Below, piece by piece: positions 16,500 through 61,660 of a stretch of DNA of 64,000 nucleotides. The stretch comes from Lachnospiraceae bacterium. GTDB taxonomy: Bacteria; Bacillota; Clostridia; Lachnospirales; Lachnospiraceae. The position numbers and the translations under genes were made by a program. The notes under the pieces are model-generated. The model was not told the DNA's origin. It made no database searches and worked only from the letters and a program-made list of their open reading frames with translations. Each line of letters begins with the position of its first letter. Position 1 is the stretch's first letter. The stretch spans positions 470-64,469 of the forward strand of contig JAFUPV010000012.1 in assembly GCA_017472605.1 (NCBI GenBank), in the 5' to 3' direction.

Positions 16500-16542
16500 T
16501 AAATCTGACCGAACGTGTCACCGGCACGTTCGCCTGGATGTA
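16500..16542 (+). repeat. REP-like palindromic element, copy 1
   Basis: TAAATCTGACCGAACGTGTCACCGGCACGTTCGCCTGGATGTA; stem CGAACGTG/CACGTTCG; 38/43 identical to the reverse complement of 28470-28512. Confidence 0.8.
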
Positions 16543-16556
16543 TAAATAACGGAAAA

Positions 16557-16577
16557 GGGCGGTGAAAGACACCGCCC
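16557..16577 (-). terminator. Rho-independent terminator after the SBP gene
   Basis: GGGCGGTG-TCTTT-CACCGCCC followed by TTTT on the minus strand. Confidence 0.7.
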
Positions 16578-16595
16578 CCGCCCTGGTTCTGTTTC

Positions 16596-18179
16596 TTATC
16601 GATTTTCAGCGATCCACTCGTCGATCTGCTTCTGATAGTCATCAATGACATCCTGCACACCTGCGTCTTCCAGCTTCTTCATGAACTCCTCATAGCAGGC
16701 TTCCCAGCCGTCAACGCCCATAACGCCGGTTGTCAGCGTGTTCTTATACTCGTCCGCAACTGCCGCCACCTGACTGATCTGGGTCGCAATGTTTGCGGTG
16801 GAAGGCGCAAAGCCGATGAGAGAAGAGGAAACCGTATCCGGTGATTCGTTCAGTTCCTTCGCAAGCTCATACTGTCCGTCCAGAACCGCCTGATTCTTAT
16901 ACGCATAGAAGCTGTTTCCGATGATCCACTTCATTGCCGCATAGGAAGTGTCCTCACCGCCCTGGCTTCCCGCATACTCAAGCGTCTCGATTCGATCCGG
17001 ATCCTCCGCATCCTTGACATAATGCTCGCCTTCCAGACCAAACACAACGGTGTTGTAAATTTCTTTTCCAATCTCCGTACCCGTTGTCAGCAGCTCGATA
17101 AACTTCGCCGCTTCCTCCGGATGCTCACAGGTGGAGGAAATGCCGTTTCCGCCTGCCGCCCACTTGTACTGAATGTAATCGTACTGCTGTACAGGAATCG
17201 CAACCACGTCAAAGCCGTAGGATTCACTGTAAATCTCAGAAACATGCTCCGGCGTACCGATCTGCTCCTTCACGCAGAATACGGTAGAAATCTCGTCCAT
17301 CATGTGGCCATATGCGTAGTTCTGAAGATCTGTGCTGACGCCGTCCGGTGAGAAAATGCCCTTGTCATACCAGTCCGCATAAATTGCCCATTTCTCTTTG
17401 AACTCGTCATTCATGTACAGGTAGGAAACCTCATCGGTGCCGTCCTTTACCATAAATCCCTTGCCAAGCGCGTCATATGGCGTTTCAAAAGCATAGCCAA
17501 GCGTGCCGCCGACCTCACTGATGCTCAGGGTACTTGCATATTTCGTGTCACCCTCGCCGGCGCGGACAGCCATTACATATTCCTCCAGGCAGGCAGCCTT
17601 CTCGGTAATCGTCAGATCCCAGTTTGTCAGCGTCTCATACATCTCATCATAGTTTCCATACTTGTCCATATATTCCTTCGGGAACAGAATGTATGCACTG
17701 TTGAATGCATTCTGATAGTTGGGAACCATGTAGGTCTCTCCGTCAACCATACCCATCTTCCACAGCCACTCCGGCAATTCTGCCCTCAACTCATCGGAAA
17801 TATACGCATCCATCGGCATGAAGCTTCCATCCTCCACATGCTCCGCAAAGGAAGACAGGTTCACGCTGTTTAAGATGTCGATCTGCGCCTTGCTCGCCTG
17901 TGCCAGCAGCACCTGCTGATTATATTCCGATGAAACAAAGCAGTTAAAGTTTACCGATACATGTTCCATGCCGGGAACGGTTTTCAGCAGCTCATTGACC
18001 TTTGCTTCCACCGCGTCCGTATCCTCCTGCTGTCCGCAGCCTCTGTAATACCATTCCAGCAGAACCGGCTCCTTCTCCTCTCCGTCCTCTGCCGCAGCAG
18101 CCGGGCCTGCTCCCGCTCCAATCATCAGACCCATTGACAGCAGCACTGCCATTGATAATGCTCTTCTTACCTTTCTCAT
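16596..18179 (-). CDS. Carbohydrate ABC transporter solute-binding protein
   Basis: Start MRKVRR with RBS GGAGG; signal peptide; acidic SBP body with FGLEGEHY and KLEDAGVQDVIDDYQKQ C-terminus; follows two permease genes. Confidence 0.88.
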   Translation of the reverse strand: MRKVRRALSMAVLLSMGLMIGAGAGPAAAAEDGEEKEPVLLEWYYRGCGQQEDTDAVEAKVNELLKTVPGMEHVSVNFNCFVSSEYNQQVLLAQASKAQIDILNSVNLSSFAEHVEDGSFMPMDAYISDELRAELPEWLWKMGMVDGETYMVPNYQNAFNSAYILFPKEYMDKYGNYDEMYETLTNWDLTITEKAACLEEYVMAVRAGEGDTKYASTLSISEVGGTLGYAFETPYDALGKGFMVKDGTDEVSYLYMNDEFKEKWAIYADWYDKGIFSPDGVSTDLQNYAYGHMMDEISTVFCVKEQIGTPEHVSEIYSESYGFDVVAIPVQQYDYIQYKWAAGGNGISSTCEHPEEAAKFIELLTTGTEIGKEIYNTVVFGLEGEHYVKDAEDPDRIETLEYAGSQGGEDTSYAAMKWIIGNSFYAYKNQAVLDGQYELAKELNESPDTVSSSLIGFAPSTANIATQISQVAAVADEYKNTLTTGVMGVDGWEACYEEFMKKLEDAGVQDVIDDYQKQIDEWIAENR

Positions 18180-18208
18180 CTGAAAACCTCCATGATTTTT
18201 ATTTATTG

Positions 18209-19087
18209 TCATCCCTTCACGCCTCCCAGTGTCATACCTTTGGTAAAATACTTCTGGAAGAAGGGAAATGCAACCAGTACCGGTCCGGCTGCGATGATAG
18301 CCATCGCAAAGCGCAGCGTTTCCGTCGGAACCACCGCGTCGCCAACATAGGAACCCATTTCCGTTGCCTGTTTCAGGTATTCCACTTCCCGGATCAGCCG
18401 CTGCAGCAGATACTGCAGGGAGTACAGATCCGGATCGCGGATATACAGCATCGATGTCATCCAGTCATTCCACTTTGTCACCAGAAACAGGAATGCAACG
18501 GATGCAATTCCTGGCTTTGCCAGCGGAACGACTATTTTAAAGCAGATATACAGTTCCTTTGCGCCGTCGATTTTTGCCGCCTCGATCAGCTCATCCGGAA
18601 TGCTCTGATAATTGGTCCGGATGATCATGACGTTGTACGCAGATACCAGTCCGGGAAGAATATACACCAGAATCTTGTCATCCAGATGAAGAACACTGGT
18701 CAGCAGGATGTAGGTTGGCACCATTCCGCCGGAAAACAGCATGGTAAAATAGACAAAAAAGTTCAGCTGCTTCTTCCAGATGAAATTCGGCCTGGACATG
18801 GGATAGGCCAGCATTGCCATGACAACGGTTGAAAGCAGCGTAGCCGCCAGTGTAAAGAAAATGGTGACTCCATAGGCACGGATAATCTTCATCGGATTGC
18901 GCAGCGCCAGTTCATATGCCGCCGTGCTGAACACCTTCGGTATCAGACGGTAGCCGCTCTGGATCAGTGTCGTTTCATCGGTGAAGGAAACGGAAATGAC
19001 CATCAGCAGCGGAAGGACATACATGACTGTTATCAGGATAAAAACAATGTGCAGACAGATCTGCCCCAGATTTTTTTTCTTCTTCAT
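18209..19087 (-). CDS. Carbohydrate ABC transporter permease
   Basis: EAA motif ELIEAAKIDGA, FSGGMVPTY, WNDW. Confidence 0.93.
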   Translation of the reverse strand: MKKKKNLGQICLHIVFILITVMYVLPLLMVISVSFTDETTLIQSGYRLIPKVFSTAAYELALRNPMKIIRAYGVTIFFTLAATLLSTVVMAMLAYPMSRPNFIWKKQLNFFVYFTMLFSGGMVPTYILLTSVLHLDDKILVYILPGLVSAYNVMIIRTNYQSIPDELIEAAKIDGAKELYICFKIVVPLAKPGIASVAFLFLVTKWNDWMTSMLYIRDPDLYSLQYLLQRLIREVEYLKQATEMGSYVGDAVVPTETLRFAMAIIAAGPVLVAFPFFQKYFTKGMTLGGVKG

Positions 19088-19098
19088 AGCCACTCCTC

Positions 19099-20031
19099 TT
19101 AAAACAGACAATTTTCCGGACTGATCTTTTTCACAACTGCATTGGCCAGCACAACGGTCAGAAATCCGGCTGCTGACTGGAACAGTCCGATGGCTGCGCC
19201 TCTTGCCAGATCTCCTGCCTGGAGCGCGCGATAGGTATAGGTATTAATGATATCCGTTACCGGATACAGGACTCCGGTGTTCTTCGGAACCTGGTAAAAC
19301 AGACCGAAATCTCCGGTAAACAGCTTGCCGATGGACAGGATGTTCTGAATGATTATAATGGGGAGCAGATGGGGAAGCATGACATGCCAGATCTGTTTGA
19401 TCTTATTTGCTCCATCCAGTCTGGCTGCCTCCAGCAGCCCCTCGTCCAGACTCATCAGGGAGGAATAGTAGATGACGCTGGTCACTCCCACATGGCCCCA
19501 TATGTATACAATCGTCAGGATCAGCGGCCATACACCAATCTGTGTATACCAGTCTGTCCTGCCTTTCCCAAGCGCCTCCAGCATCTGGTTCAGCAGGCCA
19601 TATCTGGAATGCAGGAAAACTTCTGCCAGAAATGCGACAACGACTGCCGAAAGAAAACGCGGAAACAGAATCACCGTGTTATACAGTTTCAGTGCTTTTG
19701 CATTTTTCAGGCTGTAAAACATCAGTGCCAGCGTTACCGCCGTTATGGTTCCCAGAATCATCCAGCTGAAATTATACAGGATTGTGTTCCGGATTGTCCG
19801 AACCGCATCTGCGGATGAGAAGAAGAACTTAAAATTGTCCAGACCGTTCCACGCGCTTCCCCAGATTCCCTTCAGCGGTTTATAGTTTTTAAATGCAATG
19901 ACAATGCCAAACATTGGTGCATAGTTGAAAATAAGGAGCAGCACAATTCCCGGAACTGCCAGCATTCCCATGCTGATGCTTTCGCGAACTGCTTTTTTCG
20001 ATGACTTTCCTCTCCTTCGTATCCCTTTCAC
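19099..20031 (-). CDS. Carbohydrate ABC transporter permease
   Basis: GTG start with RBS AAGGAGG; WNGLDNF, LLEAARLDGA. Confidence 0.93.
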   Translation of the reverse strand: MKGIRRRGKSSKKAVRESISMGMLAVPGIVLLLIFNYAPMFGIVIAFKNYKPLKGIWGSAWNGLDNFKFFFSSADAVRTIRNTILYNFSWMILGTITAVTLALMFYSLKNAKALKLYNTVILFPRFLSAVVVAFLAEVFLHSRYGLLNQMLEALGKGRTDWYTQIGVWPLILTIVYIWGHVGVTSVIYYSSLMSLDEGLLEAARLDGANKIKQIWHVMLPHLLPIIIIQNILSIGKLFTGDFGLFYQVPKNTGVLYPVTDIINTYTYRALQAGDLARGAAIGLFQSAAGFLTVVLANAVVKKISPENCLF

Positions 20032-20066
20032 GTCATTTGTTCCTCCTTGCCGCCTGTTGTGCTTTT

Positions 20067-20095
20067 ATTATGGCTTCCGTTTCCTCCTTTTTCAA
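20067..20095 (-). promoter_or_regulatory. Sigma-A promoter for the ABC operon
   Basis: TTGAAA-17bp-CATAAT on the minus strand. Confidence 0.5.
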
Positions 20096-20257
20096 TCCTC
20101 GTTTCATGCTTTTCTCCTCGTTTCGTACCAACCTCCGGAAATTGGTCTCCGGCGATTGAATTTTCGCTGATTTTCCGCTATGATTTACTTACCTTAACAG
20201 ACAAAGTGCGTTCCTCTTTGTCCTGTGCAAATATGTACTGTTTACCGGAGGTTTCTC

Positions 20258-21511
20258 ATGTATCAGCTCATGATCGTGGATGATGAGATCATGTCTCAGG
20301 AAATCATCTCAAACTATATCAAAAGCAATCTTCCCGCCTATCAGATCACCCATGTCTGCAGCAACGGCGCGGATGCACTTGCCTGCTTTCGCCAGAAACC
20401 GGTTGATCTCGTGCTGGTTGATATCCGCATGCCCGTCATGGATGGAATCGCTTTCATTGAAGAACTGAACCGGCTGACTTCCGACTGCATTCCCATAATC
20501 ATCAGCGGCTACGCGGAATTTGAATATGCCCAGTCGGCAATGAAGCTTGGCGTGAATCACTATCTGCTGAAGCCCCTTGATTTTCTCGAACTGGAGCGCA
20601 GTCTTTCGGCCGCCGCCCATTCCCTGAATTCCAGGAGGCAGCTTCTTGCCTCGCTAAACGTTGCCGAAGACAATCAGGAGATTTTTTTCACGCAGCTCCT
20701 TTTGGGCTCGTATCAGACAAAGGACCAGGCCCTCATCCAGTTTTCCTCTCTGCGTTTCCCCTTTTCCTATGACGCCTGCAGCGGAATCTGTCTGCAGATC
20801 CGGTTTCATTCGCTGGAGCCGGAACGTCTGGAACTGGATCCGCTCTATATGGGAATTAAAAATCTGCTTCATCTGCTCTTTTCCGCCCGATATCTGGTGC
20901 TCCTTTCTGCCAGAAACAGCACCTGCAGATACCTTCTCATCACCGATCATCTTGCGGACAGCCGGTTTGAGGAACTGCGCCTTCAGGCGCTCCAGCTGTT
21001 GGGTATTGAGATCACAGTAGAGCCTCTTCTCTCGTTTTCTTCGCTGGAGGAGCTGCGTACGAAAAAACCGGATTTTCTTCTTTTGGATTCCCGGCCGGCG
21101 AATCCTCCCTTCTCATTGCCCGGGGAACCGGTTCCATTTCTTTCCGTTCTGGACGAACCGGGACAAAAAAGCACAGCAGAAGCCATTCAGTCAAGCATTG
21201 AACAGGCGATTGTCTATATGAAGGAACACTTTGCGGAGGATTTAACGCGGGAAGCGGTGGCGGAAAAGGTGTACATGTCAGGTGCGCACTTCAGCCGGTG
21301 CTTTAAGCTTGTCATGCGGACTTCCTACAAAGATTATCTGACAGAAATCCGCATGCAGAAGGCCATCGAGCTGCTGAAAACCAATTGCCGGATCCAGGAC
21401 ATTGCCAGACAGGTGGGCTATCCGAACCCCAACCGTTTTAACATCAACTTCCGGCAATACACATCCTATACACCATCGGAATACCGCAGGCAGGTTCTGA
21501 AGCTGATCTGA
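20258..21511 (+). CDS. Response regulator with C-terminal AraC domain (YesN-like)
   Basis: MIVDDE, VDIRMPVMDG, YLLKP; AraC HTH SGAHFSRCFK...VGYPNPNRF; start moved to MYQL (RBS GGAGG). Confidence 0.93.
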   Translation: MYQLMIVDDEIMSQEIISNYIKSNLPAYQITHVCSNGADALACFRQKPVDLVLVDIRMPVMDGIAFIEELNRLTSDCIPIIISGYAEFEYAQSAMKLGVNHYLLKPLDFLELERSLSAAAHSLNSRRQLLASLNVAEDNQEIFFTQLLLGSYQTKDQALIQFSSLRFPFSYDACSGICLQIRFHSLEPERLELDPLYMGIKNLLHLLFSARYLVLLSARNSTCRYLLITDHLADSRFEELRLQALQLLGIEITVEPLLSFSSLEELRTKKPDFLLLDSRPANPPFSLPGEPVPFLSVLDEPGQKSTAEAIQSSIEQAIVYMKEHFAEDLTREAVAEKVYMSGAHFSRCFKLVMRTSYKDYLTEIRMQKAIELLKTNCRIQDIARQVGYPNPNRFNINFRQYTSYTPSEYRRQVLKLI

Positions 21512-21623
21512 AACGTTCTGCCCCTTTCCGGCCGGTCCCGCCTGAAGTCTGTACCGCCGAACGTCTTTCCCACCGGATTTTCTGCTTTCTCTCCCGTTCC
21601 GATTTCAATCAGGAGGTATCTGT

Positions 21624-23357: not shown

Positions 23358-23472
23358 ACTGCGGTACATGTTTCTGCACAGACCGCTTCCGGTCACTGGT
23401 ACTGAAATCATTGAAGCGGCGCACCAGCCCGGGTTCCAGACGGTGCACCGCTCAGAAAGAGAGGATATTATT

Positions 23473-24186: not shown

Positions 24187-24198
24187 GCAGCGCTCCAT

Positions 24199-25080: not shown

Positions 25081-25230
25081 ATACGTCCATCCCCTCTATT
25101 GATCGGTTGTCTCCGGTTTTAATCCTGACCGCAGCAACCCATTTTGATGTCTTTTCATTCCAATGCCTTCTCCTTTTGACGCCTTCGCATTCTGATATCT
25201 TCCCTTTATAATACTTCCGCAAATCTCACG

Positions 25231-27146: not shown

Positions 27147-28385
27147 TCACGGTTCCTCCTCTGCCCACACAGCATTGTGCCAGATCACTTTCTTATCAGC
27201 CAGTTCCTCTACTTCCAGATACATGGTATCTTTATATGGCTCCGGATCAATGGAAAAATAAATCTTTCCATCATAATATCCCTGATAGCTGTGCCTTTCT
27301 CCGGTTTTCTCATCCACGGGCAATTCCGCTTTCACCACAAGCGCTCCTGTATTCCGGTCAATCAGACGCAGCCAGTCTTCCTCATCCATCATCATCGCAT
27401 AATCATCAATCAGCTGAAACGCCCAGATGTCTTTGCAGTCGGAACTCTCCCATTCCCACAGAACCTTTTCTTCCCCATTTTTTGCCCAAATCAGCCGGTT
27501 TTCCCAATCCAGAAGGAGAACTCCAAGTTCCGGATCAAATCCGACCGCTCCACAGGTTTCATAGAATGACGTTTCCGTCTCATAAACAGGCTTTAAATCG
27601 TTTTCTTTCGGATCATAGCAGATATATTGACGTGAAACTGTCACACTCTGCTTCAATGCCTCTGTCTCTTCCGATGTCAGACCAGACCCGCTAAACAAGG
27701 ACGACAAATCCTGGCTGAACGCGTTTTTCTCGAAATAAACGCAGCCATCCAGAGCCGTCAAATAAGAATATCCTCCATGGAAGCTTCCTTTTGTTGTATC
27801 CAATATTTCTGTCTCCAGCGTATCCAGATTCAGAGCCGCCAAAATCCCATAGCTGTCCATTGTCATCACATATTCACCAGGTGTCGTTTCCTCATAATAA
27901 GTATCAACATAGTACAGCATGTTATCAATCAGGCACAGATCCGACATGTAATTTCCCGGTATGCAGTCTGTCAATTCTTTCTTTCCGCTTCCATCAACGG
28001 ATGCCTTCCAGACGGAATGAGCATTCATCCCTTCCCCCTGTCCGATCAGATACAGTGCCCCCTGATAAAAGAACGCTTTCTCGCCTCCAATCGGCAGCAG
28101 GGACGCGCTGCAGCTGCTGCCGGTATGGGCACAGCCTTCTGTCGCGCACAGAAAAACCTCCTGCCCCGTTGCGAAATCAATGTATTTCAGAAATGGGGAA
28201 CCATTTTGAATGTAATGCTTCAGAATTCCGTTATCGGTAATGCTTGCCCATCCGGTCGTCCCTGTTGTTCCAAAAAATGCTCTCGTTGTTTCCGCCACTT
28301 CCGTCTTTTTGGAACATGCGCTGATACTCAGCATTCCTGCCAGCAGGATTATCTGAAATAGAATTTTCTTTTTCTGTTTTCTCAT
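27147..28385 (-). CDS. Lipoprotein, probable beta-propeller, with a Cys/His cluster
   Basis: Start MRKQKKK; lipobox ISAC; LCATEGCAHTGSSCSA; repeated WKASVDG / LAALNLDT beta-blade-like segments. Confidence 0.7.
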   Translation of the reverse strand: MRKQKKKILFQIILLAGMLSISACSKKTEVAETTRAFFGTTGTTGWASITDNGILKHYIQNGSPFLKYIDFATGQEVFLCATEGCAHTGSSCSASLLPIGGEKAFFYQGALYLIGQGEGMNAHSVWKASVDGSGKKELTDCIPGNYMSDLCLIDNMLYYVDTYYEETTPGEYVMTMDSYGILAALNLDTLETEILDTTKGSFHGGYSYLTALDGCVYFEKNAFSQDLSSLFSGSGLTSEETEALKQSVTVSRQYICYDPKENDLKPVYETETSFYETCGAVGFDPELGVLLLDWENRLIWAKNGEEKVLWEWESSDCKDIWAFQLIDDYAMMMDEEDWLRLIDRNTGALVVKAELPVDEKTGERHSYQGYYDGKIYFSIDPEPYKDTMYLEVEELADKKVIWHNAVWAEEEP

Positions 28386-28430
28386 AGATATCACCCTCTT
28401 TTCCCTGATCTGTGAATCCCGGCAACAAAA

Positions 28431-28456
28431 CGGCTGCGGAATCATTTCCGCAGCCG
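28431..28456 (-). terminator. Hairpin terminator
   Basis: CGGCTGCGGAA/TTCCGCAGCCG stem flanked by AACAAAA and TTTTGTT. Confidence 0.7.
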
Positions 28457-28469
28457 CTCTTTTTGTTCA

Positions 28470-28512
28470 TACATCCGGGCGAACGTGCCTGTGACACGTC
28501 CGGTTGGATTTA
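28470..28512 (-). repeat. REP-like palindromic element, copy 2 (its TAA is the stop codon of the upstream gene)
   Basis: Minus strand TAAATCCAACCGGACGTGTCACAGGCACGTTCGCCCGGATGTA; 38/43 identical to 16500-16542. Confidence 0.8.
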
Positions 28513-30150
28513 TTCTGCCAGCTGACGGTTCATTTCCTCCAAAACAGCTTCCAGTCCTGCCTCCAGCAATTTCTCATGCAGCTCTTCCAGCAGCACTTCC
28601 GTTTCCGCGCCATACATCCCCCAGAATACAGGCGCATAGGAATCGTAAAGTTCCATGCAGGCATCATATTCCTTCTGTACCGCAGAAAGATCAATCGCGG
28701 ATTCGTCCACAAGCGGCATTGACACATATGCATTTGCCTGCAGCTGTGCCTCATAGCACGTTTCGTAAAACGGGATGGAAAGCTCCGCCAGCGCGCGGCA
28801 GGAGGTTCCTAAGCCAAGTCCCATGATGCCGCCTTTTCGGGTGTGATGCACAAGAAACGGTTCTTCTTTCGACGTATCATCGACGTAATAACTCCATCCC
28901 TCGATTCCGGAATATACCAGATTCCGAAATTCCATATCGGAATAAAGCAGATCCAGAAACTGCAGACATTCTTCCGGATACTGTGTTTCTGCGTCCACGC
29001 CAATTCCCATTTTTGCCAGGTTGATGCAGGTTTCGACGTTCAGGATGTTCGGCCATGCAAGGTATGCCGTGCCATATGGATCGGAATTCACGTATCCCCA
29101 TGTGAGACGGTATGCTTCATTGGGGACGAACACTGCCATACAATAAGCTGCCGTATCCGCGGTGGTCCGCAATTCCGGAGTTTTTATGATTCCTGTTTTT
29201 GACTGGCAGGAACTGATCAGAGTCTCCCCATAACCCAGCACGCCTGCTTCCCTGTATTGTCCCAGACACAGATACCAGTTTTTCAGCGTTTCATCTTCGA
29301 GAAAATCAACGACACGCAATGTCCCATCTTCCATTTGGCTGACAGCCCAATACGGTGCGAATTCCTGATAACCTGCAATCTCAAAAAATCCTTCATAAAA
29401 CGAATTTCCCACTTCCATACGCACCGGAATCACACCATTCTGTTTCAGCTGCTCATTTTCAGCCAGAATGGAAAGATCACTGACCGTATTTGTCCACGCA
29501 ATCGGGTAAACATCGCTCAGTTCTTTGTTGTAGTAGATTACATAGGGATTTGAAATCTCAAAACATGCAGGAATTGCATAAATCCCGCCGTCCGCACCTT
29601 TTAATGCTTCTATGCTGACTTCTGCCACCCAGTTATCTTCTGACCGCGTGTAATATGCGTTCAGGGCATCCAGCAGATGTCTTCCCGTTTCCGACTCCAG
29701 ATAGGGGGACAAATTCAGCAGATATCCATTTTCCAGACAATAGGCCTGCAGTTCGGAACTGGTTGTAAAAAAGATGTCCGCAGCCATTCCTTCTTCTTTT
29801 CTGGTTTTATATATCTCAACCGGTGTCAGGAAATCGCCGCTGAAGGATTCCTGATAACCCAGCTCAATTGCAAATTGATATCCGTTTTCTTTCAGATACT
29901 GATTGATCGCATTGATATGCTCCGGATAGCTCACAATGGTGTCATCGATTATTGTAAGAACAATGCCCTCCGGGGCTTTTTCTTCCGCATCGACCTCCGC
30001 CGTACATTCAAACTCCATGTACACAATGTTAGGACTTGCTTCGCCAAAGGTGATTTCTCCTTCTTCTGCGGTTTCGGCAACCGCATTTATACAATTCAAA
30101 AGCAATAGTGCAGACAGAAAAAAGCCAGTGTGTTCCCAGAATCCTTTCAT
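28510..30150 (-). CDS. Secreted solute-binding-protein-like protein
   Basis: Signal peptide; ADIFF, LLNLSPYLESE, DGGIYAIP, YPEECLQFLDLLY, LLEAGLEAVLEEMNRQL resemble family-1 SBPs. Confidence 0.65.
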   Translation of the reverse strand: MKGFWEHTGFFLSALLLLNCINAVAETAEEGEITFGEASPNIVYMEFECTAEVDAEEKAPEGIVLTIIDDTIVSYPEHINAINQYLKENGYQFAIELGYQESFSGDFLTPVEIYKTRKEEGMAADIFFTTSSELQAYCLENGYLLNLSPYLESETGRHLLDALNAYYTRSEDNWVAEVSIEALKGADGGIYAIPACFEISNPYVIYYNKELSDVYPIAWTNTVSDLSILAENEQLKQNGVIPVRMEVGNSFYEGFFEIAGYQEFAPYWAVSQMEDGTLRVVDFLEDETLKNWYLCLGQYREAGVLGYGETLISSCQSKTGIIKTPELRTTADTAAYCMAVFVPNEAYRLTWGYVNSDPYGTAYLAWPNILNVETCINLAKMGIGVDAETQYPEECLQFLDLLYSDMEFRNLVYSGIEGWSYYVDDTSKEEPFLVHHTRKGGIMGLGLGTSCRALAELSIPFYETCYEAQLQANAYVSMPLVDESAIDLSAVQKEYDACMELYDSYAPVFWGMYGAETEVLLEELHEKLLEAGLEAVLEEMNRQLAE

Positions 30151-53012: not shown

Positions 53013-53183
53013 CTGGATTTCCTCCTTACCTTTCGATCTCGCAATCTCGCATGCGCGTCATACAACAATTCATCTGCTGACTGCAAATGAACTCTTGTAC
53101 ACTGCGCAGGCTTCTCCCGCTCCCGCAGCGCCCGCCAGAGAGCATACAGGCATCCCGCACGGCTCACTGACTGCGTAACATAA

Positions 53184-53212
53184 AGGGGAGCAGAACCACC
53201 GTCTGCTCCCCT
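53184..53212. terminator. Hairpin after the SBP gene
   Basis: AGGGGAGCAGA/TCTGCTCCCCT inverted repeat. Confidence 0.6.
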
Positions 53213-53294
53213 CTGCATCACTCCTTCAGAAAAGGAGCTTTTTCTTAAATTTCATTTGCTTCGTTCAAATTCCGAATCAATCATCCAATCGAAA

Positions 53295-55007
53295 TTACTC
53301 AACTACGGAATTCTCGTTCAGCATAGCGATGGTCTCGTCGAAATCTTCGTCGGTCTGAGACTTAACTGCTGCAACATATGCTTCCCAAGCTGCATCATCT
53401 TCAACATCCAGTTCGCCGGTGATGAACTTCAGAGCTTCGCCTCTTGCATAACCTTCACATACGGAGGTCAGGTTAGACTTAGCGGTAGACTGATCGGAAT
53501 CAAGGTTGGTAACTGCAGGTCTGTCGAACGGAGATACGGAATCAACACCGCCAAGACGGTCGGACTCGATCCAGTACTTTCCATCATAGTAGCCATCGTC
53601 TGCGCTCCACCACGGCTCGGTTGTTGCGGAAACCTGTACCAGTGCGGAGAAGTTCTGCGGAACGAACGGGATACCGGTACGGCATACGCAGGATGCAGCG
53701 GTACCATAGAGAGCACTCTCAGTTGCCGGGCTGTCAGCGTTCAGGATGGAATCAACGAAGGTCAGAGTTCCGTCTTCGTTTGTCTCATAGGTAACGCCCT
53801 CAACACCCCAGTTGATCAGAGTGGTCATCTCATCGGAGTACTGATAGTCGATCATAGCAACCAGATATTCCGGATACTCAACGTCAGCATCGATAATGAT
53901 ACCCATCTGCGGGTTCAGAGACTTGCCAGGAAGCTTGGAGCCCCACTTCCACGGTGTTCCATAGGTGTCATCCTTCGGCAGGTATGCAAGACCCCACTCA
54001 ATGCCGGAATCTTCCGCAGCAGCGGTTGTCCAGCTCTGAGCGGAACCGGACCACAGGGTCGGGCAGATCAGAGCCTTACCGGTGGAAGCCTTCTCGTTTG
54101 CAGCGTTTCCGTCAGCAGTTCCGAACTCCGGATCAATGTATTCAGCCTCATACAGGCCGTTCAGGTACTTCAGCATCTCACGGAAGTTGTCCTCGATCGG
54201 TCCGAATGCCCACTCGGTTCCGTTCCAGTACAGAGTATCCCATGTGTGGAAGATACCAACGAATCCACGGTAGAACGCATAGTCCTTGGTGGAGTTCATG
54301 AGAACGTAGTCAGCGTCAACAGCGTCAGCATCGATCAGAGCCTTCAGGTCTGCACACAGCTGGGTGAACTCATCCAGAGTGGTAGCCGGAGTCAGATCGT
54401 TGTTCTTCAGAACGTCGAAACGATATGCGAATGCGGTGAAGGACTGAGCGCCCATGATGTCATCTGCATTGTTGATCGCATCGATGAAGTAGTACATGGA
54501 ACCATCCGGATTCTTTGCAACAGCCTCTCCGTTCGGATGACCGTCTACATAATCCCAGTAGTACTTAATGTAATCCTGATAATCAGCGATGTTCAGAACA
54601 ACCTCGTCCTCGCCGTACTCATTAACCGCTTCCTTGTAGGAATAGGTATTGATATCAGCGATATCATCAGCTGCCAGAAGGATCAGCTCGTTGGATCTGT
54701 AGTCAGCCCATGCGGTACGGTTGAAGGTAACCTCGATGTCAACACCAAGATAGTGCTCCATTGCCTGCTCCCAAAGGGTCTGAACCATGGTTCCGTCGGA
54801 AGACTGGTTGAAGTCTGCGATGTTCGCTTCGATCTTCAGAACGCCGCCCTCGATCTCAGGAAGCTCAAAACCGTTGTCAGCTGCGGTTGCCCATGTGCTG
54901 AAATCAACCTCCGGTACCTCGATATCCTGAGGAGTGGTAGCAAATGCGGACATTCCGCTCATTACCATTGTTCCGGCAAGGATACCAGCAAATAATCTTT
55001 TCTTCAT
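53295..55007 (-). CDS. Carbohydrate ABC transporter solute-binding protein
   Basis: Start MKKRLF with RBS GGAGG; signal peptide; NWGVEGVTY; follows two permease genes. Confidence 0.88.
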   Translation of the reverse strand: MKKRLFAGILAGTMVMSGMSAFATTPQDIEVPEVDFSTWATAADNGFELPEIEGGVLKIEANIADFNQSSDGTMVQTLWEQAMEHYLGVDIEVTFNRTAWADYRSNELILLAADDIADINTYSYKEAVNEYGEDEVVLNIADYQDYIKYYWDYVDGHPNGEAVAKNPDGSMYYFIDAINNADDIMGAQSFTAFAYRFDVLKNNDLTPATTLDEFTQLCADLKALIDADAVDADYVLMNSTKDYAFYRGFVGIFHTWDTLYWNGTEWAFGPIEDNFREMLKYLNGLYEAEYIDPEFGTADGNAANEKASTGKALICPTLWSGSAQSWTTAAAEDSGIEWGLAYLPKDDTYGTPWKWGSKLPGKSLNPQMGIIIDADVEYPEYLVAMIDYQYSDEMTTLINWGVEGVTYETNEDGTLTFVDSILNADSPATESALYGTAASCVCRTGIPFVPQNFSALVQVSATTEPWWSADDGYYDGKYWIESDRLGGVDSVSPFDRPAVTNLDSDQSTAKSNLTSVCEGYARGEALKFITGELDVEDDAAWEAYVAAVKSQTDEDFDETIAMLNENSVVE

Positions 55008-55132
55008 ATAGTTTCCTCCTTCTGCCGTTTTGCGGCAAATTATTTTTATTTTCTTACAGCTGCCGCCGATGCGGCAGAATAAAAACAAAGTTACAGATTT
55101 GCGGGCGTTTCTTTGCCCAAAATCAGATGGGA

Positions 55133-56032
55133 TTAACCCTTGACCGCACCTACCTGAACACCCTGTGCGAAATATTTCTGCAGGAACGGGTAGATGACCA
55201 TAACCGGCAGCGCGGTTGCAACTACGCAGGCGTACTGAACGTTCAACGGGTTCAAATCACCGTTGCTGAGCATTTCCGTTGCAGTGACCATGTCACTGGT
55301 ACCGGCGGTGAAGATGATCTTTCTCAGAACCATCTGAATCGGATACTTGGCCTCATCGTTAATATAGAGAAGAGCGCTGTAGTAGCTGTTCCACTGACCA
55401 ACGATTGCAAAGAGTCCGAAGCTTGCGTACAATGCCTTGGAAAGCGGCACATAGATCCGCAGAAGAATCTGGAACTCACCGGCTCCGTCAATTCTCGCCG
55501 CCTCACGCAGTTCATGGGAAATTCCGTTGTAGAACGCGCGGTATACGAATACATTATATGCGGACAGACAGCCCGGCAGAATCAGTGACCACCAGGAATT
55601 CATCAGATCCAGGTCACGGATCAGCAGATAGCCCGGTACGATACCGCCGCTGAAGAACATGGTGATCAGCAGCATGATGGAGAGGAACTTTTTCAGGACA
55701 AAATCCGGAACCATCATAACATAGGCCATCAGAGAGGTCATGGACAGATTGCAGATCATGAATCCGATACAGATGATAATCGTGTTCAGATAGGAACGCC
55801 AGATTCCGGCTTCCTGGAACAGAATCTCATAGCCCTTCACATTGAATTCTTTCGGGAACCAGCTTACCTGACCGGTTGTGATCTTTGAGTTACTGGATAA
55901 TGAGATTGCAATTACATTCAGAAACGGGTAGATGAAAATAATGGACATAATCACGAAAAACAGAACCAGAAGGATGTCCACGAAACGGTTTCCGATGTAA
56001 ATCTTATTTTTTACCTGATTTTTCTTAGCCAT
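55133..56032 (-). CDS. Carbohydrate ABC transporter permease
   Basis: FSGGIVPGY, ELREAARIDGA, WNSYY. Confidence 0.93.
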   Translation of the reverse strand: MAKKNQVKNKIYIGNRFVDILLVLFFVIMSIIFIYPFLNVIAISLSSNSKITTGQVSWFPKEFNVKGYEILFQEAGIWRSYLNTIIICIGFMICNLSMTSLMAYVMMVPDFVLKKFLSIMLLITMFFSGGIVPGYLLIRDLDLMNSWWSLILPGCLSAYNVFVYRAFYNGISHELREAARIDGAGEFQILLRIYVPLSKALYASFGLFAIVGQWNSYYSALLYINDEAKYPIQMVLRKIIFTAGTSDMVTATEMLSNGDLNPLNVQYACVVATALPVMVIYPFLQKYFAQGVQVGAVKG

Positions 56033-56045
56033 TTCTCATTCCTCC

Positions 56046-57002
56046 TTACCACAGACTGTTTTCCGGAGCCATCCTGCGGACTACCATGTTGGTACACCAC
56101 ACGAAGATGAAGCTGACAACTGACTGGAACAGGTTAATTGCTGTGGAATAGCTGAATTCCGCTTTGCTGATACCCTGATAGTGAATGAAGGTTGCAAGAA
56201 CATGAAGCTCGTTCTTATTGGTATCATTCTGCATCAGAAGAATCTTCTGGAAGTCAACACTCAGCACGTTACCGGCATTCATGATCAGCAGCGTGGTTGT
56301 TGTCGGCATAATTGCCGGCCATGCGATGTGACGGATCTTCTGGAGACGGTTTGCGCCATCCAGATTCGCTACGTCATAAAGCGAGGTATCCACATTGGAC
56401 AGGGCTGACAGATAGATGATGGAGCCCCAGCCGACACCCTGCCAGAGTGCAGAGCCGATGTACTCCCACATGAAGTACTTTGTTCCGCTGTTCATGTCCA
56501 CACGTGCCATTCCGAGGAACTCACGGATGTCGTTAAACAGACCGCCGAGGGAACTGAACTTGTTCAGCATGGTACATACAACCACAACAGAGATGAAGTG
56601 GGGAATGTAGGATGCTGTCTGAGCGACACGTTTGAAGCGCTTTGCCTTTAACTCATTGAGCATCAGCGCAAAAATAATCGGAGCCGGATAGGTAAACAGC
56701 AGCGTCAGTGTACCAACTTTAAAGGTGTTGATGATGATCTGCTGACAGTTCACATTTTTGAAGAAACGGATGAATTCCTTAAAGATCGGATCATTCCACT
56801 CACTTCCCAGAATGCCGCGCTTCGGTTTATAATCCTTAAACGCGATCAGGATACCATAAATCGGAACGTATTGGAAGATGATCAGAAGTGCGACCGGCGC
56901 TGCAGCCATCAGAACAAGCGCTTTCTGTCTCCAGAGTTTCTTCCAGAAACGCTGCTGGCTGACGATCAGACCGGAGGCTTTGTTATTTCCCTTTTTTTCC
57001 AT
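56046..57002 (-). CDS. Carbohydrate ABC transporter permease
   Basis: LYDVANLDGA, WGSIIYLSAL. Confidence 0.93.
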   Translation of the reverse strand: MEKKGNNKASGLIVSQQRFWKKLWRQKALVLMAAAPVALLIIFQYVPIYGILIAFKDYKPKRGILGSEWNDPIFKEFIRFFKNVNCQQIIINTFKVGTLTLLFTYPAPIIFALMLNELKAKRFKRVAQTASYIPHFISVVVVCTMLNKFSSLGGLFNDIREFLGMARVDMNSGTKYFMWEYIGSALWQGVGWGSIIYLSALSNVDTSLYDVANLDGANRLQKIRHIAWPAIMPTTTTLLIMNAGNVLSVDFQKILLMQNDTNKNELHVLATFIHYQGISKAEFSYSTAINLFQSVVSFIFVWCTNMVVRRMAPENSLW

Positions 57003-57135
57003 ATGTACCTCCCTGCAATTTTATTCCCGAGGGAAACAATCGATTTGTGCTTTCTGTCCTGTTTCCAAACCGTCAGACAGCACCGGTAGATTGCTCACTG
57101 TAACAAGTATAGGTCATTGTGTACATTTTTTACAT

Positions 57136-57168
57136 GGAATTTTTCCAGTCTTTTATGGAAATTTTCGC
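57136..57168. promoter_or_regulatory. Direct repeat with 21-bp spacing, candidate AraC/YesN activator site
   Basis: ATGGAATTTTTCC and ATGGAAATTTTCG; next to a weak -35 (TGTAAA) 17 bp from TATACT on the minus strand. Confidence 0.5.
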
Positions 57169-57299
57169 ATACTCTTCCCATCTTCCAACTTCAATTGTAC
57201 TTTTTCCATATTTTTTGTAAATCCTTCCATAACCCAGTTTGGCACTTTTATGGTAGAATGTACCTTAATATAAGGTACCTTACTCAGTCAGGAGGCGCT

Positions 57300-59117
57300 A
57301 TGAAAAAAAGACTCTTACCGTTACAGCAGCAGCTTCTCTTTTTACTTTGCATGTTTGTCGTTTTCATTTTTTCCATTATCATCTGGAGCGTCAATGACTA
57401 CATGACCATCCAGCGCGAAAGCATGGACAGCTATCTTGAACTCTATTCCAGTCACATGGCGCAGACTGCCCGCCAGTCCTATACTTCCTACGAAAACATC
57501 GCCTACAGTGTCGCCTACAATACGCTGGTTCAGGATTACATTCAGGAAGAGGACTCCGCCAGGCGCTATGATTCCTACAAAAAAGTCTATAATCTTCTGA
57601 ACAATACAGCGAAGCTGAATTCAAATCTGACAGATATCGCCGTGATCAGCAATGACGGAAACTCCATCTCGCTGACTGCCTCACCGGACCTCTACAGCGG
57701 ATATAAAGAAACGCTTTCTGCGCCCAGCTATGCCTTTCAGTCCATGGGCACGCTGACAATCCGGGATTCTGTCTGCCACATTCTGTCCATGCCTGTCCAC
57801 CAGCTGAACACGACCGGTCAGCACCGCTATCTGGGCACTGTCTTTCTTGCAATAAACAGCCAGCGGCTTTTCAGCAGCGATCTGACCCCGGAGCAGGGAA
57901 CCATGCCGGAAGTTCTTCTGATTGATGAGTATGGCCAGCTGATCCACGGCAACGAGGCGCTGTTTGCCGAACTCCCTCAGGATATCACCAGCACCTCAAA
58001 AGCAGTAAAGATCGACCGGAAAACCTACATGGCGCGCATGTACACCATATCCGAGGCAGGCAGCCGTCTTTACATCCTCTATGACAGTTCCCTGTATACC
58101 GGTGCATCCTTTGAGGTTACCCTGCGCATGTCCATCGGCATCGGCGCAGCAATGCTTCTGATTCTTCTGACGTTTATCATTGTCTGCTTCCCTGTTTCCC
58201 ATTCCCTGCGTCAGCTGACCCATGTCATGCGGGATATCACAGACGGCGAGCAGAAAACAATCCGGGAAGGCGTTGACCTGACCAATGTCCGCTTCGGCTG
58301 CTCCGAAATCCGCGACATCTACAGCGCATTTAATGACATGCTCCAGGAAATCAACCACCTGAACCATACGATTTTCAACACCTACACCCAGATGTATGAG
58401 CTGGAGATGAATAACCGCCAGACGGAGATTGACTTCCTGCGAAGCCAGATCAATCCCCATTTCCTCTACAATACACTGACAACAATCTGCGGCATGTCCG
58501 CCTCCGGTATGAACAGTCAGATCATTGACGTGACCAATGCCCTCTCGCGGATCTTCCGCTACAGCATTCAGGGCGGCGATATGGTGTCACTCTCGGAAGA
58601 GCTTGATATCATCCGCTCCTATCTGATGATTCAGTCCTATCGCTTTGAAGACCGTTTCGGCGTGGAGTACAGCATCAGCAATGAAGCGCTCCCCTGCCAG
58701 ATCCCCAAGATGATCATCCAGCCGCTGGTAGAAAACGCCATCGTCCATGGACTGGAGCCAAGTCTTAAGCGCGGAAAAATCATTATCAGCGCCTCTCTCA
58801 GCGCGGACAGAGACTATCTGACGATTTCTGTCATGGACACCGGTGTGGGCATGTCTGCCGAAAAGCTGCAGCTGCTTCGCGACACCGTTCTCAGCACAGA
58901 CCGTTACAAGCGCGGCAATGCAAAGGAAAATCTGCAGGCGCTTGACGCCAAGAGCCATGACAGCATTGGAATTCTGAACGTAAACAGCCGGATTGTTCTT
59001 TATTACGGCGAAGAATACACGCTGAAGCTGGACTCCTGGGCGGGAGCCGGAACGAACATTCAGATCCGAATTCCCTGCAAAAGACCGCTTTATCAGCAAT
59101 CAATTCGCCAGGAATGA
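57300..59117 (+). CDS. Sensor histidine kinase (YesM/LytS-like)
   Basis: Start MKKRLL with RBS GGAGG; LRSQINPHFLYNTL, IQPLVENAIVHG, DTGVG. Confidence 0.93.
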   Translation: MKKRLLPLQQQLLFLLCMFVVFIFSIIIWSVNDYMTIQRESMDSYLELYSSHMAQTARQSYTSYENIAYSVAYNTLVQDYIQEEDSARRYDSYKKVYNLLNNTAKLNSNLTDIAVISNDGNSISLTASPDLYSGYKETLSAPSYAFQSMGTLTIRDSVCHILSMPVHQLNTTGQHRYLGTVFLAINSQRLFSSDLTPEQGTMPEVLLIDEYGQLIHGNEALFAELPQDITSTSKAVKIDRKTYMARMYTISEAGSRLYILYDSSLYTGASFEVTLRMSIGIGAAMLLILLTFIIVCFPVSHSLRQLTHVMRDITDGEQKTIREGVDLTNVRFGCSEIRDIYSAFNDMLQEINHLNHTIFNTYTQMYELEMNNRQTEIDFLRSQINPHFLYNTLTTICGMSASGMNSQIIDVTNALSRIFRYSIQGGDMVSLSEELDIIRSYLMIQSYRFEDRFGVEYSISNEALPCQIPKMIIQPLVENAIVHGLEPSLKRGKIIISASLSADRDYLTISVMDTGVGMSAEKLQLLRDTVLSTDRYKRGNAKENLQALDAKSHDSIGILNVNSRIVLYYGEEYTLKLDSWAGAGTNIQIRIPCKRPLYQQSIRQE

Positions 59118-59145
59118 ATTCACCAGCAATCAATTCACCAGCAAT
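59101..59145. repeat. 3 x 15-bp tandem repeat spanning the kinase stop codon
   Basis: caattcgccaggaat / gaattcaccagcaat / caattcaccagcaat. Confidence 0.85.
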
Positions 59146-59161
59146 GAAAGGAGTTTGTCCC

Positions 59162-59935
59162 ATGTATCGGGCAATTATAATCGATGATGAAAAATGGGTG
59201 GTAAAAAGTCTGATCGCCACCCTGAAAGATATGGAGCATTTCCGAATTGAGGCCGAACTCTATGACGGTCTTTCCGCCATGCGCTATCTCAAAGAAAACC
59301 AGCCGGATCTTGCGTTTGTGGATGTACGTCTCCCCGGAATGGGAGGCCTGGAGATCCTGCAGGAGGCAAATTCCCTTGGGCTGAAAACCCTGTTTATCGT
59401 GATCAGCGGTCACGCCGAGTTTGCCTATGCCCAGAAAGCCATGCTCCACAATGCCATCGGCTACTGTCTCAAACCCTTTTCCCACAGCGAGCTTTCCGAT
59501 GCTGTGGAAAAGGCGCGGCAGCTTCTGGAAAAACGCAGACAGGCTGAGCCTTCTGTTTCCGCTTCGGATTCTTCTGCTGATTCCGGTCCAGCCGCTGTTA
59601 CGAAAAACAAGGCAGTGAACATGATGCTGGACTACATTCAGGGCCATTACATGGAGGATATCTCCATCCAGACGCTGGCCGACCTTTGTTCCATCAACCC
59701 CAACTATGCCGGGCAGCTGTTCAAGCAGAAGATGGACCAGACTTTTAACAGCTATCTGACCAACATGAGAATCCGGGAAGCGATCCGGCTGCTGACTGCC
59801 ACGGACATGCCCGTTGCTCTTGTCGCCGCTTCGGTCGGATATCAGGATTATTTCTACTTTGCCAAGGTGTTCAAAAAGATCACCGGTGCCACACCAAGCA
59901 GCTATCGGCAGGAAGAGGAACCGTTTTCCGGCTGA
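59162..59935 (+). CDS. Response regulator with AraC domain (YesN-like)
   Basis: IIIDDE, VDVRLPGMGG, YCLKP; NPNYAGQLFK...VGYQDYFYF. Confidence 0.93.
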   Translation: MYRAIIIDDEKWVVKSLIATLKDMEHFRIEAELYDGLSAMRYLKENQPDLAFVDVRLPGMGGLEILQEANSLGLKTLFIVISGHAEFAYAQKAMLHNAIGYCLKPFSHSELSDAVEKARQLLEKRRQAEPSVSASDSSADSGPAAVTKNKAVNMMLDYIQGHYMEDISIQTLADLCSINPNYAGQLFKQKMDQTFNSYLTNMRIREAIRLLTATDMPVALVAASVGYQDYFYFAKVFKKITGATPSSYRQEEEPFSG

Positions 59936-59954
59936 TATGCAGAAAGGAGTCACA

Positions 59955-61619
59955 ATGAAACATGTTTTGCCCCCAAACGCCGGACGCGGCAGCTTCCTTC
60001 GCCCGATAAAAGGATCCGCACTGCTTCTGTCCGCGGTACTGCTTCTTGGCGGATGTGCGGACCAGGTCAGTCAGCCGTCTTCGGACGCCGCTTCGGAACA
60101 GGAAACCATTGAGATCAGCATCGGATACTGGAATATCGACCGGATGGCTGATGTACAGAAGGATGCCATGCGTGACTATGTGGAAGAACGGTTTGCAATT
60201 TCCATCTCCCCGGTGTCTGTGGACTGGACGAACTACAAGGACTATTACCAGATGCTCAGTGCCACAAACAGTCTTCCCGACGTGTTCGCCACGCTGACCA
60301 TTTCCTCCAACGATGCCAATGACTCAGCCTACTATGAAAATCTGATTGAATCCGGAAGCATTCAGCCGCTGCCGGACGATCTTTCCGCCTATCCCAATCT
60401 GGAGCGGATGATGGAACAAATGGAATATACCCGCTACGAGGACGGTCATTTCTATGCGATTCCCCGCGTGTCTTTCATCGACCCGACTCTTGCATGTACC
60501 GATGCCGCATTGATCGTGCGCCGGGACTGGATGGAGAATCTTGGTCTGGACGATCCGCAGAATCTGGACGAGTTTATTGAACTGATTGCCGCCTTTGCCA
60601 ACGATGATCCGGACGGCAACGGAATTGACGACACCATCGGCTATAACGTAAATGCGCAGAATGCTCTGGGCAAGTGGGTTATGCTTGGCATTGCCCCGGA
60701 ATGCAACACCTACTCCTGGATTGAGCGGGACGGGCTCTACATCCCATCCTGGTACAGCGAGGATTTTTATGATGTTGTCTGCGCCTACCGGACCATGTAT
60801 GAGACAGGCGGTCTGGACCCTGATTTCTACATAAAAAATCCCAATGAGGTGATTGAGGATTTTGCTTCCGGACGCCTTGGCGCCATTGAGTTTAAATCAG
60901 CGCCGTCCTCCTGCCAGCAGATTGAGGAGCAGTGGAATCTTTACAACACGGAGCCGTTTGAGGAGTGTGTCGACATCCTACCCATTTTCGCCGCACCGGA
61001 CGGGACAACCTACTGCAATTCCAGCACGCCGTTCTGGTCGGAATCCTTTATCTCTGCCGATGTGGATGAAGAGAAAATGCACCGCATTCTTTCACTTTTT
61101 GACTACCTGCTTTCCGATGAAGGAAATGTCATGAGCAAATATGGTCTGGAGGATGTGGATTACCGTGTGGACAAAGACGGAACCTATACCTGCCTTCTGG
61201 ATACGGAAAATACGTCTCTGCTGGATCTTCTGGAGAAGAAATATCCGTCCATTACCCTGTTTGGCGGCCTTGCCACCTGGGGCGGTTCCGATACCGACTT
61301 TGAGCTGAATGAGATGAATTTTGCCCGTTACGGAAAGCATTGTGTCGTTCTTGGCAACAAGGACGTTACATGGAACCGCGCCAACGCGACGCCGGTTGAA
61401 CGCCCCTATGATTTTCTGATTTTCCCCAAGGAATCCTCGGAGCTGTTCAGCACAGCCAATGCCTTTTCTGAATTTGTGAAATGCATCATCGGTGATGGGG
61501 ATCCGGAAACGATGTGGAAGGAAGCAATTCAGAATCTGAAGGATCAGGGACTGGATAACTATATCCAGAGGCAGAATGATGCCTATCTTGCCTCCCTGGG
61601 AAACGACCGTGAGAACTGA
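59955..61619 (+). CDS. Solute-binding lipoprotein with no adjacent permease
   Basis: RBS AAGGAG; lipobox LGGC; LIVRRDWMENLGL, AFANDDPDGNG. Confidence 0.85.
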   Translation: MKHVLPPNAGRGSFLRPIKGSALLLSAVLLLGGCADQVSQPSSDAASEQETIEISIGYWNIDRMADVQKDAMRDYVEERFAISISPVSVDWTNYKDYYQMLSATNSLPDVFATLTISSNDANDSAYYENLIESGSIQPLPDDLSAYPNLERMMEQMEYTRYEDGHFYAIPRVSFIDPTLACTDAALIVRRDWMENLGLDDPQNLDEFIELIAAFANDDPDGNGIDDTIGYNVNAQNALGKWVMLGIAPECNTYSWIERDGLYIPSWYSEDFYDVVCAYRTMYETGGLDPDFYIKNPNEVIEDFASGRLGAIEFKSAPSSCQQIEEQWNLYNTEPFEECVDILPIFAAPDGTTYCNSSTPFWSESFISADVDEEKMHRILSLFDYLLSDEGNVMSKYGLEDVDYRVDKDGTYTCLLDTENTSLLDLLEKKYPSITLFGGLATWGGSDTDFELNEMNFARYGKHCVVLGNKDVTWNRANATPVERPYDFLIFPKESSELFSTANAFSEFVKCIIGDGDPETMWKEAIQNLKDQGLDNYIQRQNDAYLASLGNDREN

Positions 61620-61620
61620 C

Positions 61621-61660
61621 TCTGACCAAACATGTCACTGGCGCATTTGTCTGAGTGTAT
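61621..61660 (+). repeat. REP-like palindromic element, degenerate copy 3
   Basis: TCTGACCAAACATGTCACTGGCGCATTTGTCTGAGTGTAT; 31/40 identical to 16504-16543, all nine differences are transitions. Confidence 0.65.

Follow-up and report, generated by a model that had tools for sequence, protein, structure and literature searches.

The window analyzed here, a 64,000-nucleotide (nt) stretch of contig JAFUPV010000012.1 (positions 470 to 64,469) from a Lachnospiraceae bacterium, is a block of carbohydrate-utilization genes from the Clostridia in which one short palindrome occurs three times, each time beyond the 3′ end of a gene for a substrate-binding protein (SBP) or an SBP-like protein. The question raised by this arrangement is whether the palindrome is a selected part of the SBP transcripts or a member of a mobile repeat family. 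We conclude that it probably belongs to a nonautonomous family of imperfect palindromes of ~42–45 bp, similar to the repetitive extragenic palindromic (REP) elements, that multiplied in one uncultured gut Clostridia lineage. Dozens of copies, many of them near-identical and with unrelated flanks, the occurrence of tandems, and the absence of the element from the corresponding junctions of relatives point to recent multiplication, in agreement with the initial annotation, which had proposed a dispersed family of the REP or miniature inverted-repeat transposable element (MITE) kind. Repeats of the REP type have been described well in Proteobacteria but poorly in gut Firmicutes.

The unit is an imperfect, hairpin-forming palindrome of 42–45 bp. 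All three copies announced by the initial annotation were present, with coordinates refined to 16502-16543 on the plus strand (c1), 28469-28510 on the minus strand (c2), and 61619-61660 on the plus strand (c3), and all three were extragenic. Read in the orientation that displays TCACNGG, the full units are TAAATCTGACCGAACGTGTCACCGGCACGTTCGCCTGGATGTAT for c1, in which AATCTGACCGAACGTG and CACGTTCGCCTGGATGTAT enclose TCACCGG, TAAATCCAACCGGACGTGTCACAGGCACGTTCGCCCGGATGTAT for c2, and TGACTCTGACCAAACATGTCACTGGCGCATTTGTCTGAGTGTAT for c3, a diverged and apparently decayed copy whose sequence was identical in four assemblies. Copy c1 matched c2 at 39 of 44 aligned positions and c3 at 33 of 44 (both counts take in two bases before the unit), and the differences among the three were almost all transitions, as were 10 of the 11 between c1 and c3. 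The nonpalindromic center is the best conserved part of the unit: the exact 10-mer TGTCACNGGC occurred three times in the 64 kb, once per copy, and this loop block was kept in c3 despite the decayed stem. Also invariant, both in the three window copies and at the tandem junctions described below, was the tail GTAT (ATAC on the opposite strand). A covariance model built from the three copies recovered exactly c1–c3 from the window (61–72 bits, E ≤ 1e-13, filters off; 71.8 bits for c1, 69.3 bits for c2, and 60.9 bits for c3); the next-best match, at 16 bits, was merely the reverse strand of c2, and sequence shuffles gave 0 matches to the repeat.

Contigs from four gut metagenome runs were aligned to c1 at ≥80% identity, with a second pass at ≥96%. 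Between 20 and 50 contigs per run matched the unit at ≥80% identity, and most of them ran into sequence other than that of the window on both sides. The summed depth rose from 14–57 in the flanks to 96–1260 within 16502-16546, i.e., 7–30 times the flank. Loose ends of low agreement stood on both sides, and the boundaries fell at ~16502 and ~16546. When identity was raised to ≥96%, shared 31–33-mers formed separate unitigs with a depth of 85–100, compared to ~11–14 for single-copy contigs, and the summed depth was 290–416. These values correspond to roughly 20–30 near-identical copies per genome equivalent, if all of them come from one organism. Several contigs held two head-to-tail units, separated by the spacers TGC, AAAC, and GGAAC. 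Since the depth at 16490-16498 was that of single-copy sequence while that of the element was 7–30 times higher, the GC-rich imperfect hairpin at 16446-16500, which had been suspected of extending c1, lies outside the repeat family. It adjoins c1 and falls inside the extra ~110 nt of this lineage's junction. A search for RNA-seq runs holding the window found none for this organism, just DNA runs.

We then compared the junctions of c1 and c3 with those of related metagenome-assembled genomes and contigs. Relatives in which SBP gene 1 (16596-18212, minus strand) is 78% identical have the same operon, comprising a response regulator and histidine kinase, permeases, the SBP, the GH88 gene, and the same five genes downstream. 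The spacer between the SBP and GH88 genes measured 187 nt in the window, compared to 77 nt in these relatives, where it held the native hairpin only and no element, and c1 was missing from the orthologous spacer in every locus compared (L124–L129). Relatives of SBP-like gene 3 (59955-61619, plus strand; 76% identity) end 2–4 nt from the start of the SASA esterase gene, the ribosome-binding site of which lies inside the upstream gene, whereas the corresponding spacer of the window is 84 nt long and holds c3 and a new ribosome-binding site. Since the relatives run these operons without the element at the same junctions, c1 and c3 lie in lineage-specific insertions. The ~120 kb of loci from relatives and the 10 kb that adjoin the window yielded no family copy. 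Likewise, an exact-pattern scan with the family and its flanks through 185,579 species-representative genomes, a collection that does not include this species, recovered no member and only chance coding matches in high-GC genomes; the same outcome was obtained with an exact-pattern scan of the Joint Genome Institute (JGI) metagenomes, and viral contigs and plasmids gave chance or coding matches only. A family with such clear before-and-after junctions in relatives may serve as a marker for strain typing and for breaks in metagenome assemblies. Beside the c3 junction, SBP-like gene 3 and the SASA gene are translationally coupled in relatives (L138:11600-11640 and L139:11600-11640, compared to 61617-61704 in the window), and the last residues of SBP-like protein 3 differed in this lineage from those of the relatives.

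Folding separated the copies. For c1, the plus strand gave −16.9 kcal/mol (z −3.4) and the mRNA strand −12.8 kcal/mol (z −1.5); c2 gave −18.1 kcal/mol (z −3.1) on the TCACNGG strand and −15.4 kcal/mol on the other. On the TCACNGG strand, both copies fold into a hairpin with a three-base loop closed by a U-G and a C-G pair. A significant hairpin was formed by c1 and c2 (z ~−3.2) but not by c3, which at −8.4 kcal/mol and z −0.5 folded no better than shuffled sequence. Covariation across the three copies amounted to a single compensated pair, not above shuffles. With its transition-rich changes, its lost pairing, and one compensated pair only, c3 fits a copy in decay.

The window contains four SBP-type genes, and the best named relatives of its proteins come from Lachnospiraceae and Aristaeellaceae metagenome-assembled genomes (MAGs). 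SBP gene 1 encodes a DUF3502/LipO-type ATP-binding cassette (ABC) substrate-binding protein, which is 527 aa long when read from the database start and 100% identical to P0001; it is the last gene of a permease–permease–SBP block, after which the GH88 gene (14213-16408) comes next. Directly 3′ of it, on the minus strand, stands a native GC-rich hairpin at 16550-16580 (GGGCGGTG-TCTTT-CACCGCCC followed by TTTTCC), the position of which is conserved in relatives without the element (L124, L125, and L127 were compared); a strict terminator scan did not call it. Copy c1 lies 53 nt past the stop of SBP gene 1 and 93 nt before the GH88 start, and is antisense to the SBP/GH88 operon, while c2 and c3 lie in sense with their SBP genes. 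SBP gene 2 (28510-30150, minus strand) is an orphan of DUF3502 type that no permease gene adjoins. It is very rare, with three homologs in the protein database at 35–39% identity and no relative of its protein found in the genome collection. Copy c2 opens on the final base of the TAA stop of this gene (28510-28512). The homologs of SBP gene 2 end at the same place, which makes this a native stop codon that the element directly adjoins. Twelve nt downstream of c2 on the mRNA follows a terminator-type hairpin (28431-28456; 11 pairs, 8 of them GC) that has a T-rich tail on either strand. SBP-like gene 3 (554 aa; its homologs carry SBP_bac_1/8 domains) is the third gene of a sensor unit made up of a histidine kinase, an AraC-type response regulator, and the SBP-like protein, and the SASA esterase gene (61704-63095) comes after it. 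Here, c3 opens on the final base of the TGA stop (61617-61619) and ends 43 nt before the SASA start.

Copies c2 and c3 thus share a register in which the unit opens on the final base of the stop codon. Copy c1 has a TAA in the same register on the plus strand, which ends just a 13-codon open reading frame without a ribosome-binding site. These positions agree with the earlier claims that the copies lie just after SBP-type genes and occur in both orientations, and across c1–c3 the orientation relative to the transcripts followed no rule. The negative case is the fourth SBP-like gene (53295-55007, minus strand), located after two permease genes, which has no element and just a terminator-like hairpin at ~53177-53212. 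When all junctions of the window were counted, the element was present at three of the four SBP-type 3′ ends and at 0 of ~36 others (hypergeometric p ~4e-4, n = 3 copies), a suggestive tie to SBP-type genes that rests on three events. The junctions also offer natural experiments on a 42-bp hairpin that has come to separate translationally coupled genes (c3) or to lie on a stop codon (c2 and c3).

The assignment of the unit to the REP/MITE-like class is supported; the family is new, and the kind of element is already known from the REPs of Escherichia coli. As in the REPs and bacterial interspersed mosaic elements (BIMEs) of E. coli and other Proteobacteria, we find a short imperfect palindrome of 20–45 bp that often stands right after a stop codon, single or clustered and in either orientation. 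The nonpalindromic tail (GTAT here) may be the counterpart of the conserved GTAG-type tetranucleotide at the hairpin foot of REPs, which is used for cleavage, and the tens of extragenic copies would match those of REPs if all come from one genome. REPs are known as barriers to mRNA decay or, within 15 nt of a stop, as dampers of translation (PMC12306157). The present family differs in its unrelated sequence, in its host, a gut Clostridia lineage, and in a copy number that is estimated from metagenomes. With REPINs it has in common a nonautonomous, hairpin-forming, replicative unit that is overrepresented in extragenic space, and a related ~190-nt foldback repeat of the MAG BH.7_2, which carries the same apical hairpin, has a long covarying stem; the window unit, however, is a single 42-bp palindrome rather than an inverted doublet of ~100 bp. 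The Correia/NEMIS elements of Neisseria, the BOX, RUP, and SPRITE elements of Streptococcus pneumoniae, and ERIC are likewise dispersed intergenic inverted-repeat structures with insertion polymorphism between related genomes, are cotranscribed with neighboring genes, and can alter mRNA processing, but they reach 100–150 bp or more and have defined terminal inverted repeats and target-site duplications (TA for Correia), whereas the window unit is much shorter. No published sequence match was obtained. A full-text search for the core sequence gave unrelated eukaryotic matches only, and Rfam returned 0 matches in the window at the gathering score and, at E ≤ 10, only noise around the loci with related hairpins. 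In Clostridia, both REP-type elements and REP-associated tyrosine transposases (RAYTs) of group 1 have been reported (PMC5581495), which makes a REP/RAYT-type system plausible here.

For a REP-like family, we envisage that copies would arise by insertion through a trans-acting enzyme, with a hairpin-recognizing enzyme of the HUH/RAYT type or a similar one as the default candidate. They would persist where an added hairpin is harmless, namely in spacers located 3′ of genes; in sugar-uptake operons, such spacers are usually the junctions between the SBP and the next gene. The copies would then decay by ordinary transition-rich mutation, as c3 may have done. Effects on expression, such as a barrier to 3′–5′ decay, would be a by-product of individual copies and not the reason that the family exists; c2 and c3, starting at the stop codon, could interfere with translation termination.

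Several findings weigh against this account. With ~110 nt at the c1 junction and ~80 nt at that of c3, the additional DNA is longer than the unit, so that a simple 42-bp insertion is insufficient. The recovered tandems are head-to-tail, unlike the alternating or inverted pairs of BIMEs and REPINs. A tblastn search for RAYT/IS200 transposases, with IS200 TnpA and YafM sequences as queries, found none in 1.17 Mb of fetched loci, the source genome lying outside this set. The copy number is an estimate from metagenome contigs, and some copies may come from co-resident relatives. Finally, the placement of all three copies after SBP-type genes (p ~4e-4) and the stop register shared by c2 and c3 are more orderly than random insertion, and this order, with the TAA of c1 in the same register, gives a selected role some weight.

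Beyond the window, the top of the hairpin recurred in other elements of gut anaerobes. The apical 17 nt of the unit (ACGTG-TCACNGG-CACGT) plus one base, ACGTGTCACNGGCACGTT, occurred at 70 loci in the genome collection, compared to 7 loci for a control that kept the stem but had its loop letters permuted. The stem was extended by at least 4 further pairs in 35 of 73 occurrences, with at least 8 different lower-stem sequences, and most of the stem-extended occurrences lay in noncoding DNA of gut Clostridia and Coriobacteriia, within distinct architectures. The genes neighboring these loci have nothing in common and are mostly not SBP genes. In the simplest interpretation, related mobile elements that pass between gut anaerobes have the hairpin top as their recognition site. 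More tentatively, the apical hairpin could be a portable recognition module that spans phyla (Clostridia and Coriobacteriia of animal guts) and is served by one undiscovered trans-acting factor, either a hairpin-specific enzyme of the HUH/recombinase type or an RNA-binding protein, although we hold this to be rather less likely than not. At the same tentative level, the module might join the 42-bp unit, the ~190-nt foldback repeat, a putative three-hairpin small RNA, and inserts flanking tRNA genes, and the window copies would be sites of that system. If this is true, one mechanism links REP-like repeats, foldback repeats, and tRNA-flanking mini-insertions. The conserved apical hairpin offers a way to trace the enzyme by which such elements move in anaerobes, and its distribution across phyla is the part most worth following up.

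Among these architectures, inserts of ~100–130 nt with the apical hairpin were observed beside tRNA genes (L025:4590-4790, L021:3300-3660, L053:1-450, L018, L041, L060, L065, L046, L037, and L001), and an insert of the same kind was located after rpsI in L019. The tRNA-flanking inserts occurred as single units or as 2–3 tandem units with a period of 150–200 nt, and were bounded by direct repeats of 21–65 bp that comprise the downstream terminator and the tRNA 3′ end up to the T-loop; an inverted copy of the T-arm stood at the far end, and the hairpin was always antisense to the tRNA. No integrase was found near these inserts, and an identity as tRNA or transfer-messenger RNA was rejected, as ARAGORN and Rfam called just the neighboring true tRNAs. 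The ~190-nt foldback repeat, the conserved core of which holds the hairpin, was present in at least 13 copies in the MAGs BH.7_2 and U_126911, with at least 13 in one MAG (L031:3657-3881; L006, L013, L014, L024, L043, L049–L051, L055, L057, L059, and L063). Its closing stem of ~22 bp varied by copy yet stayed complementary, and G-T mismatches were equal on both strands. At a third group of loci (L016:3340-3500, L010:6140-6300, L011, L022, L026, and L052; no Rfam match), the apical hairpin was succeeded by a second and a third conserved hairpin (GGAGAAGCGG...CCGCTTCTCC and GAAATGC...GCATTTC) and by a tail rich in pyrimidines. Judged by their sequence, these three-hairpin loci look like an unannotated small RNA or leader, and a small open reading frame ending in the loop was discarded as a candidate because it was not conserved between loci. 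The fourth type comprised single intergenic hairpins. One of them, at L032:3550-3589, is a full-length covariance-model match of 26 bits that shares CTGGAT after the stem; it belongs to an ABC operon of the oligopeptide type, in which it separates an SBP_5-type gene from the first of the permease genes.

With these data, we weighed other explanations of the window copies. The copies might be selected cis-acting mRNA elements, in which the hairpin at the SBP 3′ end blocks 3′–5′ exonucleases or uncouples the SBP from the downstream genes. By analogy with the REP between malE and malF, such elements would give an excess of SBP over enzymes and permeases, and a stabilization of this kind had been advanced by the initial annotation. 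All three copies do follow SBP-type genes, c1 and c2 are stable hairpins, REPs are documented as both stabilizers and attenuators of mRNA (PMC12306157), and the related hairpin of L032 likewise separates an SBP-type gene from a permease gene. Nevertheless, c1 has its better fold on the wrong strand and lies past the SBP gene's own conserved hairpin, the terminator-type hairpin right after c2 would already protect that 3′ end, c3 is unfolded, and the fourth SBP-like gene and the relatives' operons are without the element. In addition, a hairpin within 15 nt of the stop codon lowers expression of the upstream gene in E. coli (PMC12306157), and on this evidence c2 would lower, not raise, upstream expression. 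We therefore regard a selected role in the mRNA as unlikely, and the earlier proposal of malE-like stabilization, with the SBP excess that it would produce, as not sustained by the individual copies. About equally doubtful is the idea that each copy is a recognition hairpin for a trans-acting factor, be it an RNA- or single-stranded-DNA-binding protein or a recombinase, with the apical 17 nt as the binding module and the window copies as domesticated sites. The excess of the exact apical sequence over its loop-permuted control, the variety of lower stems beneath it, its presence in four architectures across Clostridia and Coriobacteriia, and the intact loop block of c3 above a decayed stem all speak for such a module. 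They are, however, compatible with a transposase recognition site of related mobile elements, and under neutral decay, keeping 10 nt intact in c3 is only weakly improbable; moreover, no candidate partner was identified, the neighboring genes share nothing, and neither Rfam nor the literature gave a match.

A duplex-DNA operator for a regulator of carbohydrate-utilization genes, e.g., one of the nearby AraC-type response regulators, would sit upstream of the GH88 gene, the gene at 27147-28445, and the SASA gene, and each copy indeed stands 24–93 nt upstream of the next gene, contains the inverted repeat GAACGTG-N7-CACGTTC, and, at two of the three loci, has a histidine kinase/AraC-type response regulator pair nearby. 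Yet the family has dozens of copies and close head-to-tail tandems, its best conserved part is a nonpalindromic center, which is unusual for dimer operators, and between c2 and the gene that follows lies a terminator-type hairpin. No promoter-like sites were found near the copies, the relatives run the same operons without the element, and the CGAAC and GTTCG arms are 13 nt apart rather than the 4 nt of a LexA box, all of which makes an operator highly improbable. That the copies resemble each other by chance, or as paralogs duplicated together with the SBP genes, is effectively refuted. The SBP genes are indeed paralogs, albeit distant ones (17–20% identity), but the similarity sets in only at the stop codon and leaves out the coding sequence, and c1 has the opposite orientation to its gene. 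Shuffles gave 0 matches, the covariance model gave E ≤ 1e-13, and many further copies exist in the metagenome.

Other known identities were rejected on specific features of the copies. Like the attC sites of integrons, the copies are imperfect palindromes directly after open reading frames, and attC sites are recognized as folded single strands whose stems vary while the structure is kept; unlike attC sites, they lie inside ordinary sugar-utilization operons with no cassette array. They also lack R''/R' core sites (RYYYAAC/GTTRRRY), the sole GTT being GTTCGCC, which misfits RRR, and no integrase was found in the window. A MITE with a TA target-site duplication (mariner/IS630 type) fits the TA that flanks c1 and c2 but neither c3 (TG/TA) nor the second units of the tandems (GC-AATC and AAAC-AATC), and excising the unit with one TA would extend SBP gene 2 by 9 residues past the end of its homologs. 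A MITE with terminal inverted repeats was dismissed because the whole unit is one palindrome, and the inverted pairing of REPINs or BIMEs because the tandem spacers are 3–5 nt between head-to-tail units and the window copies are single. The tails GUAUAAAU, GUAUGAAC, and GUAUUUAA do not suit an intrinsic terminator, and the terminator scan called none of the three copies; consensus scans for promoters called none in the unit. The arms of c1 likewise fail the LexA (Cheo) box, CGAAC-N4-GTTCG. On inspection, the sequence requirements of RAT/ANTAR antiterminator targets, CsrA GGA motifs, the k-turn, and cre boxes were unmet, and a loop like that of the iron-responsive element (CAGUGN, reverse strand) fits only when N is T.

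Two minor observations concern the surroundings of the copies. The GC-rich spacer beside c1 contains the string CUGAUGAG at 16457-16470 on the plus strand, but not the remaining parts of a hammerhead core (GAAA and the stems). A PDDEXK_2 gene (L120:15228-16373), encoding an Rpn/YhgA-like putative transposase or nuclease and with no adjoining copy of the element, lies between GH43 and HpcH genes ~4.5 kb beyond the start of the window, on the same 105-kb scaffold.

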